A DNA stretch of 6,047 nucleotides from a virus (lineage: Duplodnaviria; Heunggongvirae; Uroviricota; Caudoviricetes): IMG/VR virus record IMGVR_UViG_2681813004_000006, positions 1-6,047 of that record; one strand, 5' to 3'. The notes under the pieces were generated by a model. It did no database searches, had not been told where the DNA came from, and saw only the letters and a list, made by a program, of their open reading frames with translations. This document shows positions 782-6,047 of this stretch, in pieces. The position numbers were made by a program, and so were the translations under genes. Position 1 is the first letter of the stretch. Each line of letters opens with the position of its first letter.

Positions 782-1320
782 GCGTAAATATGATATATCC
801 GGAAATTACAGGCAAAAGCGGCGAACATTTACGCCTGAACACGCTGGAAGCAGTCTGGATCCAGGGGAAATTACGGATGTGGGGGCGGTGGTCGTATATC
901 GGTGGGGGTAAATCCGGAAATATGTTTAACCGGTTACTGGTTTCGAAAAAGCTGACGAAAACAGCAGTTAATGAGGTTTTACGCAGCATGAAGAAATCCG
1001 GGCTGGAAAAACCGGAACTTGAGGCATTTTTTCGGGATATGACCAGAGGGAAGCAGAAGAGCTGGTTGTCACATTGTACAGACACAGAGGCGTTGATTAT
1101 TGATCGCGTTATCAGTGAGGTGCTTGGGGAATATCCCGGGCTAATCAATATTCTCCGGCAAAGGTACGAAGGACGGGGAATGAGTAAGAGAAAAATGGCA
1201 GAATGTTTAAATCGTACTCACCCGGAATGGTGTTTCAGCACATGTGAGAAACGTATTGCAGGTTGGTTAGCCGTGGCTGAACACATGCTTTATGTACCTA
1301 TGCACGATTCATTTCGATAA
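778..1320 (+). CDS. Putative late-gene antitermination protein Q (Phage_antitermQ-like)
   Basis: 180-aa ORF directly after rusA and directly before a promoter/terminator module, the canonical Q position. Contains an RMWGRWSY motif reminiscent of phage-82-type Q proteins (from memory). Start is uncertain: GTG at 778 overlaps the rusA stop (GTGA), or ATG at 790. Confidence 0.6.
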   Translation: MSVNMIYPEITGKSGEHLRLNTLEAVWIQGKLRMWGRWSYIGGGKSGNMFNRLLVSKKLTKTAVNEVLRSMKKSGLEKPELEAFFRDMTRGKQKSWLSHCTDTEALIIDRVISEVLGEYPGLINILRQRYEGRGMSKRKMAECLNRTHPEWCFSTCEKRIAGWLAVAEHMLYVPMHDSFR

Positions 1321-1417
1321 AAAAAGCTTGCTTTTTTACGCAGAAACAGCTTGAATTCCTGTAAGCTTCGCAAAGCTGTATCGCGAGGCGAAATGCAAGT
1401 TTTTTCGCACAAGGAAG
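1321..1417 (+). promoter_or_regulatory. Putative late promoter PR' / Q-utilisation (qut) region
   Basis: About 100-bp non-coding stretch between the Q stop and a strong intrinsic terminator, with TTGCTT and TTGAAT -35-like hexamers and dyad symmetry (AGCTTCGCAAAGCT). Exact -10/-35 not resolved by eye. Confidence 0.35.
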
Positions 1418-1438
1418 CCACCGGAAGGTGGTTTTTTT
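1418..1438 (+). terminator. Intrinsic terminator, tR'-like
   Basis: GC stem CCACC / GGTGG with a GGAA tetraloop, followed by a 7-T run (1432-1438). Confidence 0.7.
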
Positions 1439-1561
1439 GTGTCCGCGATATACAGTAGCGCAATAAATTCGCTGGTGGTTATTAATACCGTTCTTTCAGC
1501 TTGCTGGCTTTTTCGACAAGAGTTATTGGTGTGTCACGTTAACCGGAAAAGGGAAAAAGAC

Positions 1562-1759
1562 ATGCTAAAACAGCAGGATATGACAGAAACCGCCAGAGTG
1601 GTGTTTAATGAATTAAGCGTTACCGAACCGGCGACAGTCGGGGAGATAGCGCAGAATACTTACCTTTCACGCGAACGCTGCCAGTTAATACTGACCCAGC
1701 TGGTTATGGCGGGTCTGGCAGACTATCAGTTCGGTTGTTACAGACGCCTTCCGCAGTGA
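1562..1759 (+). CDS. Hypothetical small protein (65 aa) with a probable winged-helix/HTH DNA-binding fold
   Basis: ATG at 1562 preceded by AAGGGA about 9 nt upstream. The stretch ATVGEIAQNTYLSRERCQLILTQLVMAGLADYQ has a helix-turn-helix-wing pattern. The track ORF from GTG 1439 starts inside the terminator T-run and is unlikely to be the real start. Confidence 0.4.
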   Translation: MLKQQDMTETARVVFNELSVTEPATVGEIAQNTYLSRERCQLILTQLVMAGLADYQFGCYRRLPQ

Positions 1760-1774
1760 AGGCTTTTTTATTTG
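1746..1774 (+). terminator. Candidate intrinsic terminator overlapping the stop of the small ORF
   Basis: Stem GCCTTC (1746-1751) / GAAGGC (1758-1763), followed by TTTTTTATTTG. Confidence 0.45.
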
Positions 1775-1786
1775 TGGTAAATGGGC

Positions 1787-1817
1787 GGCTGGTGGGTGTT
1801 AGGGGCACCCACCAGCC
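1787..1817. repeat. Perfect 12-bp inverted repeat (GGCTGGTGGGTG / CACCCACCAGCC) with a 7-nt spacer; possible operator or RNA hairpin
   Basis: Arms at 1787-1798 and 1806-1817 are exact reverse complements, with loop TTAGGGG. No U-tract follows. Confidence 0.6.
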
Positions 1818-2029
1818 ATCTGCTCATGCGTTGGGTTCACAAGCAAACCTCAGGCCCACTGCTTTGCGCAAAAGCAGAATGAGCCTATCAGAGACAGGCT
1901 TAATGATCCATGCTTAATACTGTAAAAATATCCAGTTGTTAGTTAATCAACGCCGACTGCCTGGAATTTATCCGGTCGTTACCCGAAAATTCTGTTGACC
2001 TGATAGTCACGGACCCGCCGTACTTTAAA

Positions 2030-2959
2030 GTGAAGCCTGAGGGCTGGGATAACCAGTGGAAGGGCGACGATGATTACCTGAAGTGGCAGGACCAGTGTCT
2101 GGCGCAGTTCTGGCGGGTGCTGAAACCTGCCGGAAGTCTTTACCTGTTCTGTGGTCATCGCCTGGCATCTGATATCGAAATCATGATGCGTGAACGCTTC
2201 AGTGTGCTGAACCATATTATCTGGGCGAAGCCGTCCGGACGCTGGAACGGATGCAACAAGGAAAGCCTGCGGGCGTATTTCCCCGTCACAGAGCGCATTC
2301 TGTTCGCGGAACATTATCAGGGGCCGTATCGTCCGAAAGATGCCGGGTATGCGGCGAAGGGCAGTGCACTGAAACAGCATGTGATGGCCCCGCTGATTTC
2401 TTACTTTCGTGATGCGCGCGCGGCCCTGGGGATAACGGCAAAACAGATTGCAGATGCCACAGGAAAGAAAAACATGGTGTCGCACTGGTTCAGTGCCAGT
2501 CAGTGGCAGCTACCGAACGAAAGCGATTATCTGAAATTACAGTCGCTGTTTGCCCGGGTGGCAGAAGAGAAACATCAGCGCGGTGAACTGGAAAAGCCCC
2601 ACCACCAGCTGGTGGATACGTATACGTCACTGAACCGGCAGTATGTGGAGCTGCAGAGTGAATATAAGCATCTGCGGCGGTATTTTGGTGTGACGGCGCA
2701 GGTGCCGTACACGGATGTGTGGACACATAAACCGGTGCAGTTCTATCCCGGGAAACATCCGTGCGAAAAACCGGCAGAAATGCTGCAGCAGATAATCAGC
2801 GCAAGTAGTCGTCCTGGTGATCTGGTTGCGGATTTTTTCATGGGGTCGGGTTCAACGGTAAAAGCGGCGATGGCACTGGGGCGTCGTGCGATTGGTGTTG
2901 AGCTGGAGACCGGACGTTTTGAGCAGACAGTCAGGGAAGTTCAGGATTTAATCGTTTGA
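2030..2959 (+). CDS. Beta-class N6-adenine/N4-cytosine DNA methyltransferase (orphan, phage-type). The homologous reading frame extends upstream to 1943 and to an ATG at 1910, but is interrupted by an in-frame TAG at 1940-1942.
   Basis: Motif IV DPPY is encoded at 2012-2023 (translation ...LINADCLEFIRSLPENSVDLIVTDPPYF...), upstream of the first canonical start (GTG 2030). Motif I FFMGSGST lies near the C-terminus. ATG 1910 gives MLNTVKISSC-TAG-LINADCL... in the same frame. No adjacent restriction endonuclease gene. Confidence 0.8.
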   Translation: MKPEGWDNQWKGDDDYLKWQDQCLAQFWRVLKPAGSLYLFCGHRLASDIEIMMRERFSVLNHIIWAKPSGRWNGCNKESLRAYFPVTERILFAEHYQGPYRPKDAGYAAKGSALKQHVMAPLISYFRDARAALGITAKQIADATGKKNMVSHWFSASQWQLPNESDYLKLQSLFARVAEEKHQRGELEKPHHQLVDTYTSLNRQYVELQSEYKHLRRYFGVTAQVPYTDVWTHKPVQFYPGKHPCEKPAEMLQQIISASSRPGDLVADFFMGSGSTVKAAMALGRRAIGVELETGRFEQTVREVQDLIV

Positions 2960-3008
2960 AACGGATGAGATTGCAGAATTAATTACGCACCATTATTATT
3001 CTGCTTCC

Positions 3009-3084
3009 GGCCCTTTAGCTCAGTGGTGAGAGCGAGCGACTCATAATCGCCAGGTCGCTGGTTCAAATCCAGCAAGGGCCACCA
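3009..3084 (+). tRNA. tRNA with CAU anticodon, ileX/ileZ-like (tRNA-Ile2 by lysidine modification; would be called Met by anticodon alone)
   Basis: 76-nt cloverleaf: acceptor GGCCCTT/AAGGGCC, D-stem GCTC/GAGC, anticodon loop CTCATAA, T-arm GCTGG-TTCAAAT-CCAGC, encoded CCA. Near-identical to E. coli ileX as I recall it. Confidence 0.9.
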
Positions 3085-3085
3085 A

Positions 3086-3161
3086 CCGCCACTAGCCATC
3101 AGGAAAGAGCGTCAACCCTTTAAGTTGAGTGTGCGAGGTTCGAGTCCCCGGTGGCGGTCCA
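3086..3161 (+). tRNA. Atypical or degenerate tRNA-like gene (anticodon loop CCTTTAA, nominal anticodon UUU; identity uncertain, possibly a pseudo-tRNA)
   Basis: Perfect 7-bp acceptor stem CCGCCAC/GTGGCGG (C1-G72), T-loop TTCGAGT, encoded CCA, and a good anticodon stem TCAAC/GTTGA. However the D-stem is GCCA/GAGC with two mismatches, position 33 is C rather than the near-universal U, and the T-stem has an A-C mismatch. Confidence 0.5.
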
Positions 3162-3163
3162 GT

Positions 3164-3239
<76 letters not shown>

Positions 3240-3247
3240 TCAAGTCC

Positions 3248-3282
3248 GGTGGGGTTCCCGAGCGGCCAAAGGGAGCAGACTG
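3248..3282 (+). pseudogene. 5' fragment (about 35 nt) of a tRNA-Tyr gene, lacking the anticodon and 3' half
   Basis: GGTGGGGTTCCCGAGCGGCCAAAGGGAGCAGACTG matches the 5' end of E. coli tRNA-Tyr (tyrT/tyrU) as I recall it; similarity is lost immediately afterwards (ACTCAGTTCATGG...). Confidence 0.65.
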
Positions 3283-3539
3283 ACTCAGTTCATGGCCAAA
3301 AACGATTTCTGTGATAAATATTTTGAATATTATTTACAGGTAAATGGAGTGGGGCACATGGATAGAAATATTACAATAGAGAATGAAGTATATGCCCGTA
3401 TTGTATGGGCAGAGAAGGCAAAAACACGGTAATTCCGTGTGTTGCCATGATACCTGATTGGCAGAATAGTTGTTTGGTTTTGAGTATATAGTCAGCGTTT
3501 TTTGTTCAGTAATTGCTCCCTCAAAAAATAATAAAATAA

Positions 3540-3660
3540 GGTGATTATTTTTGTTTATTATTTAGTTTTTTTTGTGTGTTGTTTTATTGTTTTTGCGTGG
3601 TTTGTTTTTTATTGTTATTTCATTAAGGGAAGGTAAATTCAGGATGGCAGTCTGTAGATA
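3540..3660 (+). promoter_or_regulatory. T-rich, AT-rich upstream region of the PerC-like gene (probable promoter and curved-DNA region)
   Basis: Iterated TTTTTGT / TTGTTTT / TTATTGTT motifs across 3545-3620, directly upstream of the strong SD and ATG of the 3675 gene. Possible -35 TTGTTA (3613-3618) and -10 TAAATT (3634-3639). Confidence 0.35.
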
Positions 3661-3674
3661 ATCGGAGGTCACTT

Positions 3675-3989
3675 ATGCTACATGATCACGTGGCAGAATG
3701 TCTGGAGAAAAAAGGACTGTACCGGAGAGCAGCTGAACGATGGGCAAAAGTGATGGTACAGCTAAGTGATGACCAGAAAAGAAAAGTAGCGGCACAGAAA
3801 CGAGCAGAGTGTTTGCGTAAGGCGCGCCGGACTCCGGTTTCACCGGTGAACCTGACCGAAATAAAACAAGCGGTCAACAGACTACATTCTGAGTTGGGAA
3901 TGGGATTTGAAGAGCGGCGGGTATTCCGACGATATAAAGGGACAGGAGAACAGAATACGTCCGGAAACGCGCGGTCAAAAAAATGCTAA
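3675..3989 (+). CDS. PerC-family transcriptional regulator (Pch-like, PerC homolog)
   Basis: 104 aa. N-terminal motif LEKKGLYRRAAERWAKVM matches the conserved PerC/Pch signature (ekkGlyRRAAerW) as I recall it; basic C-terminus. Strong SD GGAGG 6 nt before the ATG. AT-rich context typical of prophage cargo genes. Confidence 0.7.
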   Translation: MLHDHVAECLEKKGLYRRAAERWAKVMVQLSDDQKRKVAAQKRAECLRKARRTPVSPVNLTEIKQAVNRLHSELGMGFEERRVFRRYKGTGEQNTSGNARSKKC

Positions 3990-4025
3990 AAAATATCTGA
4001 GAGAGTTATTGCCTGTTACCATAAG

Positions 4026-4052
4026 AAAAAGCGACTTTAGTGGTCGCTTTTT
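4026..4052. terminator. Bidirectional intrinsic terminator between convergent genes
   Basis: AAAAA-GCGAC-TTTAGTG-GTCGC-TTTTT: a 5-bp GC-rich stem flanked by an A-run upstream and a T-run downstream, so it can terminate on both strands. Confidence 0.6.
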
Positions 4053-4070
4053 GTGTCATATATAAGTCGT

Positions 4071-4295
4071 TTAAGTAAACCTGTCTGAACAGGTGCTCTG
4101 GTCGTGTTTGTCTTTGTTGGGTACAAATTGAGAATATTTTTCATTAATTAATCTTCTTCTGCAGGCTTCAATAACCCACGCTGAAAAATTACCTGAACCT
4201 TTCAGGTCAAGAGCGATGTTAATTTGTTCAATTATCTGGTTTGGAAATCGGATGTTGCGGGTTGTTGTTCTGCGGGTTCTGTTCTTTGATGACAT
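4071..4295 (-). CDS. Small YlcI/YnfO-like (DUF3950-like) prophage protein, 74 aa
   Basis: Internal ATG (M35 of the 108-aa track ORF) gives MSSKNRTRRTTTRNIRFPNQIIEQINIALDLKGSGNFSAWVIEACRRRL..., resembling DLP12 YlcI as I recall it. A perfect TATAAT on the - strand (plus coordinates 4338-4343) lies about 40 bp upstream. The longer 108-aa form (start 4397) is possible but would begin upstream of that promoter. Confidence 0.5.
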   Translation of the reverse strand: MSSKNRTRRTTTRNIRFPNQIIEQINIALDLKGSGNFSAWVIEACRRRLINEKYSQFVPNKDKHDQSTCSDRFT

Positions 4296-4465
4296 AATGT
4301 TGCCCCGAGGGGTTACATATTGCCAAAAAACTGCTTTATTATATCCCGAATAACGCGGGGATCCTGCTGGTACCATGCTGTCGTGGTGGTTCGGCATTTA
4401 CCCAGGGCGCGGAGGGGACATTCAGTGCGGACACGGGGGCCAGCCAGGATTCGGCGCGCTGGGGT

Positions 4466-5716
4466 GTGGGTAAACCGTTATATCAGGACCTGATTGCGCG
4501 CACCAAAGCTGCATTACAGAAGAACCCGAAAAATGTGTTGCTGGCGGTGTGCTGGATGCAGGGAGAGTTTGACATGAGCGCCGCCACCCACGCACAGCAA
4601 CCTGCGCTGTTTACAGCCATGCTGACACAGTTTCGTGCTGACCTCTCCGTGTTTAACGCGCAGTGCCATGGTGGCAGTGCTGCAGATGTGCCGTGGATTT
4701 GTGGTGACACGACGTATTACTGGAAAAATACATACGCTACCCAGTACGACACCGTGTACGGCGGGTATAAAAACAGGGAGAGTGAGGGCGTTTATTTTGT
4801 GCCCTTCATGACAGACGGTAACGGCGTCAATACCGCCACTAACGCGCCGGCAGAAGATCCGGATATTCCGGCATCAGGATATTACGGTGCGGCATCGAGA
4901 ACGAATGGAAACCAGGTATCATCAAACCGCCCGACACATTTCAGTTCATGGGCGCGCAGGAGCATTATTCCGGATCGTCTGGCAACCGCTATTCTGAACG
5001 CAGCCGGGCGCACCTCAGCCTTCATCAGTGGTAAGGCACCGGAAATCAAACCCTCGCCCGGCGGCAACACGCCATCGGGTCCGTCTGCAGATACGTCCGT
5101 TCGCACAATCTCCCTGCTGCCGGCAGCCGGAGAGGCTGCTGCGCAGGGCTGGAGCATTAAGGATGGCGGAATTCAGTTGTCAGATGGTGTATTTAAGATC
5201 ACCAAGCAGAGCAATAAAACCTGGTCCCTGACGCATCCGGTGGATGACGCAATTACCCTGCTGACACAGGGCGGCAGACTGACCTGTAAGTTCCGCCTGT
5301 CAGGCGCACTGACCAACAATCAGTTCGGGCTGGGGATTTATCTGTATACGGATGCTCCCGTTCCTGATGGTGTGGCGATGACGGGTACCGGTAATCCGTT
5401 CCTGATGTCGTACTTCACTCAGACCACTGACGGCAGAGTGAATCTGATGCATCACAGGAAAGCCGGAAACACGAAGCTGGGGGAGTTCGGCGATTACGGT
5501 AACGACTGGCAGACGCTGGAGCTGGTGTTCACCGCCGGCAGTGCCACGGTTACTCCGAAACTGAATGGAGTGGCTGGCCCGGCATTCCAGGTTATAAAAG
5601 ACAGTCTGACACTGGGACTGAATGCGCTGACGCTGACGGATGTTACAAAAAATGCAGCGTATGGCGTTGAGATAGAAAGTCTGGTGCTGGAGATAAATGC
5701 ACCGGCATCATCATAA
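4466..5716 (+). CDS. NanS-p-like 9-O-acetyl-sialate esterase homolog, N-terminally truncated (SGNH/DUF303 C-terminal half plus C-terminal beta-rich domain); possibly a gene remnant
   Basis: Motifs IPNNAGILLVPCCRGGSAF (upstream, in frame but with no start), [19 protein letters not shown], and [16 protein letters not shown] resemble the central and C-terminal parts of YjhS/NanS as I recall them. The frame is open from 4298, with the first canonical start a GTG at 4466 and no good SD. The N-terminal GQSN catalytic-serine region is absent. Confidence 0.65.
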
Positions 5717-5800
5717 AAAGTGAGCCAGTCAAATGGAAGGTATCGTTAAACTCACCGGTAGTGTCAGTGGGTCGTCTGAGACGCCTGCATGAGTTATCAG

Positions 5801-5865: not shown

Positions 5866-6047
5866 ATGTACCAGATGGAAAAAATCACAACAGGTGTGTC
5901 ATACACCACGTCAGCGGTAGGGACGGGATACTGGTTACTGCAACTGCTGGACAAAGTCTCTCCGTCCCAGTGGGTGGCAATAGGTGTACTGGGGAGTCTG
6001 CTGTTTGGCCTGCTGACGTATCTGACTAACCTGTATTTCAAAATCAG
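5866..6047 (+). CDS. Lambdoid class-I holin (S-like), 5' portion; continues beyond the window end
   Basis: Translation [60 protein letters not shown]... matches lambdoid-prophage S holins from memory. Dual-start motif (Met1 and Met4), SD GGGAG 7 nt upstream, hydrophobic TM segments. Not in the ORF track because no stop falls inside the window. Confidence 0.85.

Follow-up and report, generated by a model that had tools for sequence, protein, structure and literature searches.

A group-1 pch-ylcI block in the stx slot of a lambdoid prophage contig: a known regulator in a placement that may be an assembly artefact

The window analysed here is a stretch of 6,047 bp from the late-control region of a lambdoid prophage (IMG/VR record IMGVR_UViG_2681813004_000006), and exact protein look-up showed it to be one entire draft contig, AOTC01000204.1 of assembly GCA_001447405.1. 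It carries a gene for a PerC-family regulator, pch, together with the convergent gene ylcI, between a tRNA array and a truncated copy of the esterase gene nanS-p. The regulator is an ordinary group-1 Pch, a known gene with known neighbours, which elsewhere lies between the lysis genes and terminase. Its placement in this contig, in the slot that holds the toxin operon stx2AB in a Shiga toxin 2a (Stx2a) phage, is best explained by the faulty joining of contigs during assembly or scaffolding, with a probability of about 0.5, an artefact being slightly more likely than a structure present in the cell. The gene and its mechanism were already known; the placement alone is new, and it would be of modest consequence even if true.

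The product of pch matches the Pfam profile PF06069 with an E-value of 3.8e-44 and 149.3 bits (cut-off 22.6), residues 1-89 falling on profile positions 1-89 of 90. A preliminary description of this DNA had proposed a PerC-family, Pch-like regulator, and in this it was right. The protein is 100% identical to the copies of Escherichia coli O145:H28 RM9872 and O157:H7 EDL933 and agrees at 103 of 104 residues with that of O157:H7 strain 3-5-1; the exact sequence is labelled "PchABC family" in one source. PerC of enteropathogenic E. coli (EPEC) plasmids of the pEAF type belongs to the same Pfam family and likewise acts upstream of ler (PMC4764244; PMC5293775), but it is plasmid-borne, shorter and distant in sequence. 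Since its identity to the window protein is only about 45-48%, over some 87 residues in the plasmid records, and the O157:H7 Pch copies are nearly identical, the window protein is a group-1 Pch. PchA, PchB and PchC of enterohaemorrhagic E. coli (EHEC) O157:H7 share with it the length of 104 residues, the prophage location, the small open reading frame (ORF) and leader upstream, the terminator and the convergent ylcI. Position is the only difference, the window gene lying beside a tRNA block and a truncated nanS-p rather than beside Rz and the small subunit of terminase.

The function of these proteins is described in three papers cited here (PMC4764244; PMC6265319; PMC7873438). Pch binds AT-rich, H-NS-silenced DNA at the LEE1 (ler) promoter of LEE, the locus of enterocyte effacement, loosens the H-NS/StpA/Hha complex, and lowers the occupancy of H-NS and StpA, so that ler and the LEE type III secretion system are switched on (PMC4764244). 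LEE expression in EPEC is reported to depend less on PerC (PMC4764244). Expression of the group-1 pch genes is raised by the SOS response and prophage induction (PMC6265319). Translation of pchA is governed by a structured leader that is opened by the small RNA DicF (PMC7873438). To judge from its sequence identity, the window copy would activate LEE1 and ler through the displacement of H-NS known for PchA (PMC4764244).

The usual home of the block is well defined. In RM9872 and in O157:H7 strain 3-5-1 it follows the lysis genes and precedes the small subunit of terminase; in RM9872 it stands between Rz with an IS3 element and terminase. The order Rz-pch-ylcI-terminase was found in 658 of 5,426 complete E. 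coli genomes, counted as genomes covering at least 80% of a query spanning the segment. Among IMG/VR contigs that contain this pch start, the same 25 nt lie at the left in 64 of 64 (one with a single-nucleotide difference), and the standard right flank is present in all 35 pch loci that reach far enough. The canonical pch flanks are ...TTTATAGTGTG and TATTCAGTG. In 62 of 64 IMG/VR loci the distance from Rz to pch is 0.7-0.9 kb, Rz being upstream. In the IMG/VR loci that have nanS-p, this gene mostly starts some 5 kb before pch, with a range of 3.9-6.3 kb. The standard segment is situated about 4.5 kb 3' of nanS-p. Given this fixed home between Rz and terminase and an identity of 99.9% to the block of RM9872, the window block is ordinary late-region sequence of EHEC/EPEC-type lambdoid prophages and not a foreign island.

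In relatives that lack a perC-like gene, the shared part of the block is only the 5' half of ylcI. The possibility that the edges of the window block are natural module boundaries was considered and rejected: phages without the regulator diverge elsewhere, directly behind Rz and at the beginning of ylcI or inside it, and the flanks are canonical in every other pch locus examined. Another odd join beside pch occurs in a draft assembly, in the IMG/VR contig L033 (4121-6506), where the pch block is cut within ylcI and an inverted nanS-p/tRNA/Q region follows about 100 nt further on.

The preliminary description had drawn an AT-rich segment of about 1.2 kb at 3283-4465. The low G+C content was confirmed, at 39.6% compared with 50.6% and 53.8% in the left and right flanks, but it belongs to 1,024 bp only (3284-4307); positions 4308-4465 are nanS-p sequence of normal G+C content and lie outside the block. 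It had also read the segment as an AT-rich cargo island with a virulence regulator at the stx-equivalent site. In its full form, this reading has a unit from elsewhere bring its own regulator to the stx position, possibly in place of the toxin operon, and work there as cargo insulated from phage late transcription. The block does have moron-like traits, namely its own terminator and a G+C content below that of both flanks, and the slot is that of stx2AB in the Stx2a phage. Yet it is 99.9% identical to ordinary prophage backbone fixed between Rz and terminase, the 5' half of ylcI, which forms its right part, is common even to the cryptic prophages of K-12, and no trace of stx flanks was seen. 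Moreover, with lysis genes downstream, a block that stopped late transcription would be expected to stop lysis as well. Insertion of an island from elsewhere is thus very improbable, this reading being already largely refuted.

The two joins that set the block apart from its neighbours are both blunt, abrupt breaks in homology. At the left, tyrU sequence ending ...GCAGACTG is followed by one unassignable A and then by CTCAGTTC; this A, at 3283, is the single base assignable to neither side. At the right, ...TTGCCCCG abuts AGGGGTTAC directly. Both joins are absent from the 5,426 complete E. coli genomes and from 50,697 phage records. Exact searches of IMG/VR returned neither join, and such searches also drew a blank for the left join among the GTDB species representatives and for the right join among the JGI metagenomes. 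A 108-codon ORF that spans the right join had no match in an exact look-up. The preliminary description had named a convergent YlcI-like gene, and the family is correct; the coding sequence is not the 108-codon ORF but the 74-codon gene of Table 1. Its product matches PF13132 (DUF3950) with an E-value of 2.8e-17 and 62.7 bits (cut-off 25) and NF041551 with 34.5 bits (cut-off 30). The gene retains a mere 12 nt of native upstream sequence. Short inverted repeats are centred on both joins, ACTGA-C-TCAGT at 3279-3289, which is completed by A3283, and CCCC-GA-GGGG at 4303-4312. They have arms of 5 and 4 nt, were spotted post hoc, and are matched by random joins in 0.66% (left) and 2.5% (right) of trials. 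Site-specific recombination and insertion sequences were rejected as the cause of the joins, because the edges show neither repeats nor target duplications nor the ends of an element.

To the left of the block lies a tRNA array ending in a broken gene. Positions 3164-3282 are 100% identical to K-12 thrU, the 8 nt of its native spacer and tyrU up to its 35th nucleotide, in agreement with the truncated tRNA-Tyr ending at 3282 that had been proposed. The Tyr sequence stops at G34 in the anticodon loop, so that only nucleotides 1-35 of the 85-nt cloverleaf are kept, and neither ARAGORN nor Rfam called a tRNA at 3248-3282. This piece is a fragment and not a functional member of its family. Intact Tyr genes are present in three other contigs, in the order Ile-Lys-Thr-Tyr in one (L019) and Ile-Lys-Thr-Tyr-Gly in two (L020, L021), which indicates that the window fragment is the remnant of a phage-borne copy of thrU-tyrU-glyT.

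The same break is found in a second IMG/VR contig, L018 (UViG_2681813004_000013; 2141-2419, minus strand). Its tRNA block is identical to window positions 3008-3283 over 276 of 276 nt and is left at the same Tyr G34. It then continues with AAGGTG..., which is a methylase gene from nucleotide 118, and with the holin gene. This Tyr/methylase join is absent from the complete E. coli genomes. The only record of the truncated methylase of L018 is a single NCBI contig, unannotated and 10,226 bp long, and the truncated nanS-p of the window has the same status. L018 and the window contig probably come from one assembly. Comparison of L018 with complete genomes gave a mosaic without close relative and was uninformative. 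When Tyr genes cut after G34 were searched for in IMG/VR, L018 was the only one besides the window, and the idea that this position is a hot spot for breakage thus gained no support. Both edges had been taken for recombination scars; both are indeed abrupt, but the cut in tRNA-Tyr is not specific to an insertion at this site, the end of the same 276-bp block being joined to a methylase gene in L018.

To the right of the block, nanS-p lacks its first 445 nt (148 codons), and the first in-frame start is the GTG at 4466, so that the 5' truncation seen in the preliminary description was borne out. The remnant matches positions 101-158 of 226 of the Pfam SASA profile as well as DUF6645, and had no hit to DUF1737. 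The catalytic motif GQSN, residues 71-74 of full-length NanS-p, falls within the missing codons. As far as its sequence indicates, the remnant is a fragment and not a functional member of the family. The 416-residue nanS-p remnant and a 337-residue call for the methylase upstream are known from this contig alone. In a comparison of eight nanS-p paralogues, no switch from conserved to variable sequence was evident at position 445.

The window is a small draft contig, the region it comes from is rich in repeats, and the order of its pieces has this single contig as its source. Several observations point to contig joining. Each of the two pieces 3284-4307 and 4308-5719 has counterparts of at least 99.5% identity within single normal prophages, for example L035; these run in the same orientation, with the order alone changed. 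The 1,024 bp of the block come near the length of the stretch that is missing, about 0.9-1.9 kb by comparison with L003 and L035, and the missing sequences are multi-copy, the tRNA genes being common to the chromosome and the 5' region of nanS-p being common to prophages. In addition, the first piece of the window ends at the point where the otherwise identical block of L018 diverges, as would be expected of a branch in one assembly graph. Position 4307, where the block ends, coincides with a G/A difference already known between pch loci. An artefact of this kind would have arisen if a contig of 1 kb, whose true position is downstream of the lysis genes, had been placed into a gap some 1-2 kb long that in truth holds repeats, the remaining tRNA genes and the 5' end of nanS-p.

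Other observations weigh against an artefact. The contig contains no Ns, and no sequence is shared at the joins. Common assemblers need shared k-mers or leave Ns, so that blunt abutment would call for an unusual step in the pipeline. The inverted repeats at both joins hint that these arose in the DNA and not in the software. The prophage is also decaying elsewhere, as its methylase gene with a nonsense codon shows, which makes real rearrangements unsurprising. Neither the left edge of the block nor the start of the nanS-p piece falls at an obvious paralogue boundary, and a common origin of L018 and the window in one assembly is no more than probable.

On the reading that the joins are real, a decaying prophage received the pch-ylcI block in its stx slot, as a copy or by relocation from the usual place in the same or a sister prophage, through two non-homologous joins, with deletion of the sequence from the tRNA-Tyr anticodon loop through nanS-p codon 148. 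Template switching during replication and two successive deletions in tandem prophages are possible routes. Besides the contiguous sequence, this reading draws on the bluntness of the joins, as illegitimate recombination would give, and on the two inverted repeats, the left one complete with its A3283. Three complete genes are retained, with 8 and 12 nt to spare at the edges. The methylase nonsense codon would signify relaxed selection, other 5'-truncated methylase fusions exist in E. coli (P0072 and P0152), and the slot holds varied cargo in relatives. On the other hand, two independent blunt events around exactly one block, or a rare templated insertion, would be needed, and the joins are known from a single 6-kb draft contig. 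The same tRNA-Tyr nucleotide would also have been broken twice, in the window and in L018, and no other truncated Tyr gene in IMG/VR backs a hot spot. Real joins are a serious but somewhat doubtful explanation. The fuller proposal brings a group-1 pch block into the stx slot, immediately after Q and the tRNA genes, with the break in the tRNA-Tyr anticodon loop at the nucleotide also used in a second prophage; this loop would then be a recurrent breakpoint for illegitimate recombination. The proposal is likewise tentative and falls short of an even chance. Joining of contigs is the reading preferred here.

The slot itself was correctly recognized in the preliminary description, inasmuch as this contig places the block where stx2AB stands in the Stx2a phage. 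That phage has the order methylase, three tRNA genes, stx2AB and nanS-p, and the window block occupies the position of stx2AB, before nanS-p and holin. The comparison of flanks gave a match in slot position only: the tRNA array differs, nanS-p lacks 445 nt, and the order rests on one draft contig. The Stx2a phage array consists of one tRNA with a CAT anticodon and two tRNA-Arg genes, whereas the window has Ile-Lys-Thr and the Tyr fragment, and the cargo in the window is a regulator and not a toxin. In sister prophages with the same Q, the cargo between Q or the methylase and nanS-p is, for example, an AraC-type regulator with TerB and DUF3927, or a toxin-antitoxin-like pair with TerB; unlike the window, these have full-length nanS-p genes of 617-645 codons. 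The K-12 genes ylcI of DLP12 and ynfO of Qin belong to the same family as the window ylcI, with about 94% DNA identity in the 5' half of the gene; the 3' part differs, and the native region between ylcI and terminase is missing upstream of the window copy.

The features of the window are collected in Table 1. From left to right, the end of a DUF968 gene and RusA precede the Q-like antiterminator gene, the 65-codon ORF, the DNA methylase gene and the three tRNA genes (3009-3239); the pch-ylcI region, the nanS-p fragment and the start of a class II holin gene follow.

Table 1. Features of the 6,047-bp window, in window coordinates, with the evidence for each.
Feature	Position	Strand	Evidence and remarks
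Q-like late antiterminator gene (DUF1133)	790..1320	+	Pfam PF06576 (E 1.1e-110), PF06530; PHROG 753 "anti-termination protein Q-like"
Conserved 65-aa ORF	1562..1772	+	phrog_331; 3' end is a terminator-like hairpin (1746-1763) followed by a T-run
DNA methylase gene	1910..2959	+	PF01555; premature TAG at 1940-1942
tRNA block	3008..3283	+	tRNA-Ile2 (CAT) 3009-3084, tRNA-Lys-like 3086-3161, tRNA-Thr (UGU) 3164-3239, 8-nt spacer, first 35 nt of tRNA-Tyr 3248-3282, A3283 (ARAGORN, Rfam)
pch-ylcI block (AT-rich segment)	3284..4307	.	1,024 bp; 99.9% identical to O145:H28 RM9872; GC 39.6%
46-aa conserved small ORF	3292..3432	+	phrog_2157, full-length match (E 2.7e-37); begins 8 nt past the left join
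T-rich pch upstream and leader region	3433..3674	+	base composition; GGAGG at 3664-3668
pch, group-1 Pch (PchA/B/C-type) PerC-family regulator, 104 aa	3675..3989	+	PF06069; identity to O145 and EDL933 copies
Two-way intrinsic terminator hairpin	4026..4052	.	between pch and ylcI; flanked by an A-run and a T-run
ylcI/ynfO-family gene, 74 aa	4071..4295	-	convergent with pch; PF13132, NF041551, phrog_949; identical to the annotated O145 coding sequence
nanS-p remnant, codons 149-617	4308..5716	+	blastn against full-length copies starts at gene position 446
Class II holin gene, 5' part	5866..6047	+	PF04971; 97-98% matches to holin regions; the contig ends inside the gene

The exact sequence of the Q-like protein is very common among E. 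coli prophages. About 100 nt 3' of its gene is a terminator-like hairpin at 1418-1440 (CCACCggaaGGTGG, then seven T), the position of which fits the end of a short pR'-type leader transcript. The hairpin at the end of the 65-codon ORF, identified by a terminator scan and folding, has a folding energy of -8.9 kcal/mol. In the methylase gene, the nonsense TAG is codon 11, which is GAG in three relatives by alignment; the gene caller began the gene with the ATT at 1946, the next standard start being the GTG at 2030. In the E. coli proteins P0072 and P0152 the C-terminal 81-84% of the same type of methylase is fused to N-terminal domains of other kinds, a phage lysis domain among them, from which it appears that 5' truncations and fusions of the methylase gene recur.

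The gene at 3086-3161 is called tRNA-Lys (UUU) by ARAGORN and in some RefSeq annotations, but the Rfam tRNA model fails to reach an E-value of 0.1 on it; the copy in strain SLK172 is longer by 1 nt. Prophage arrays in which Ile-Lys-Thr is followed by Gly are present in complete genomes, SLK172 being an example. The phage tRNA island resembles a captured chromosomal thrU-tyrU-glyT operon, and relatives have Thr-Tyr-Gly with an intact Tyr, or Thr-Gly (L004, 5206-5359; L019-L021). A TTATTAT-like motif is present 8-15 nt 5' of tRNA-Ile in the window (2990-3008) and in L003, L004 and L018-L021, the upstream contexts being otherwise unrelated. The tRNA island may use it as a promoter or as a processing element.

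Within the block, the 46-codon ORF is without annotation in the RefSeq copies that were examined. The region upstream of pch had been described as a T-rich promoter region with a strong Shine-Dalgarno sequence. The base composition (55% T across 3480-3620) and the Shine-Dalgarno sequence, GGAGG placed 6 nt 5' of the pch ATG, stand; as to a promoter, there is one weak consensus match, at 3442-3470, and a scan of 1300-4700 gave 2 promoter-like sites compared with a chance expectation of 4.2, no more than in shuffled sequence. A regulatory role for 3433-3674 is suggested by analogy with the pchA leader (PMC7873438). The bidirectional terminator that had been predicted after pch was recovered, the hairpin folding on both strands with -14.7 kcal/mol on the plus strand and -12.1 kcal/mol on the minus strand (z about -2.6 to -2.8).

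In a lysogen, pch would be expressed from its own upstream region, of which 391 nt are kept 5' of the ATG. After induction it would also be read within the Q-dependent late transcript coming from upstream. To reach the holin gene this transcript would have to pass the terminators at about 1418-1440 and 1746-1772 as well as the one that follows pch. The preliminary description had the regulator gene transcribed by the late operon yet insulated from it. With the holin and lysis genes further downstream, polymerase modified by Q would, by what holds for lambdoid late genes generally, have to read through the pch terminator, so that the block would not be insulated. The same logic of late-transcript read-through, established for stx2 in Stx phages, would apply to the window.

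Short draft contigs from genomes rich in lambdoid prophages can show unique gene orders, and these should be checked against the reads before a cargo island is proposed. Pch sets the level of LEE expression in EHEC and EPEC, and where and how pch is transcribed therefore matters for virulence. If the placement in this contig is real, pch would be the first protein gene after the tRNA genes and would stand nearer the start of the late transcript, while the esterase would be inactive and ylcI would lack its promoter. Even a real move would change little, as pch already lies within the late region at its usual site.

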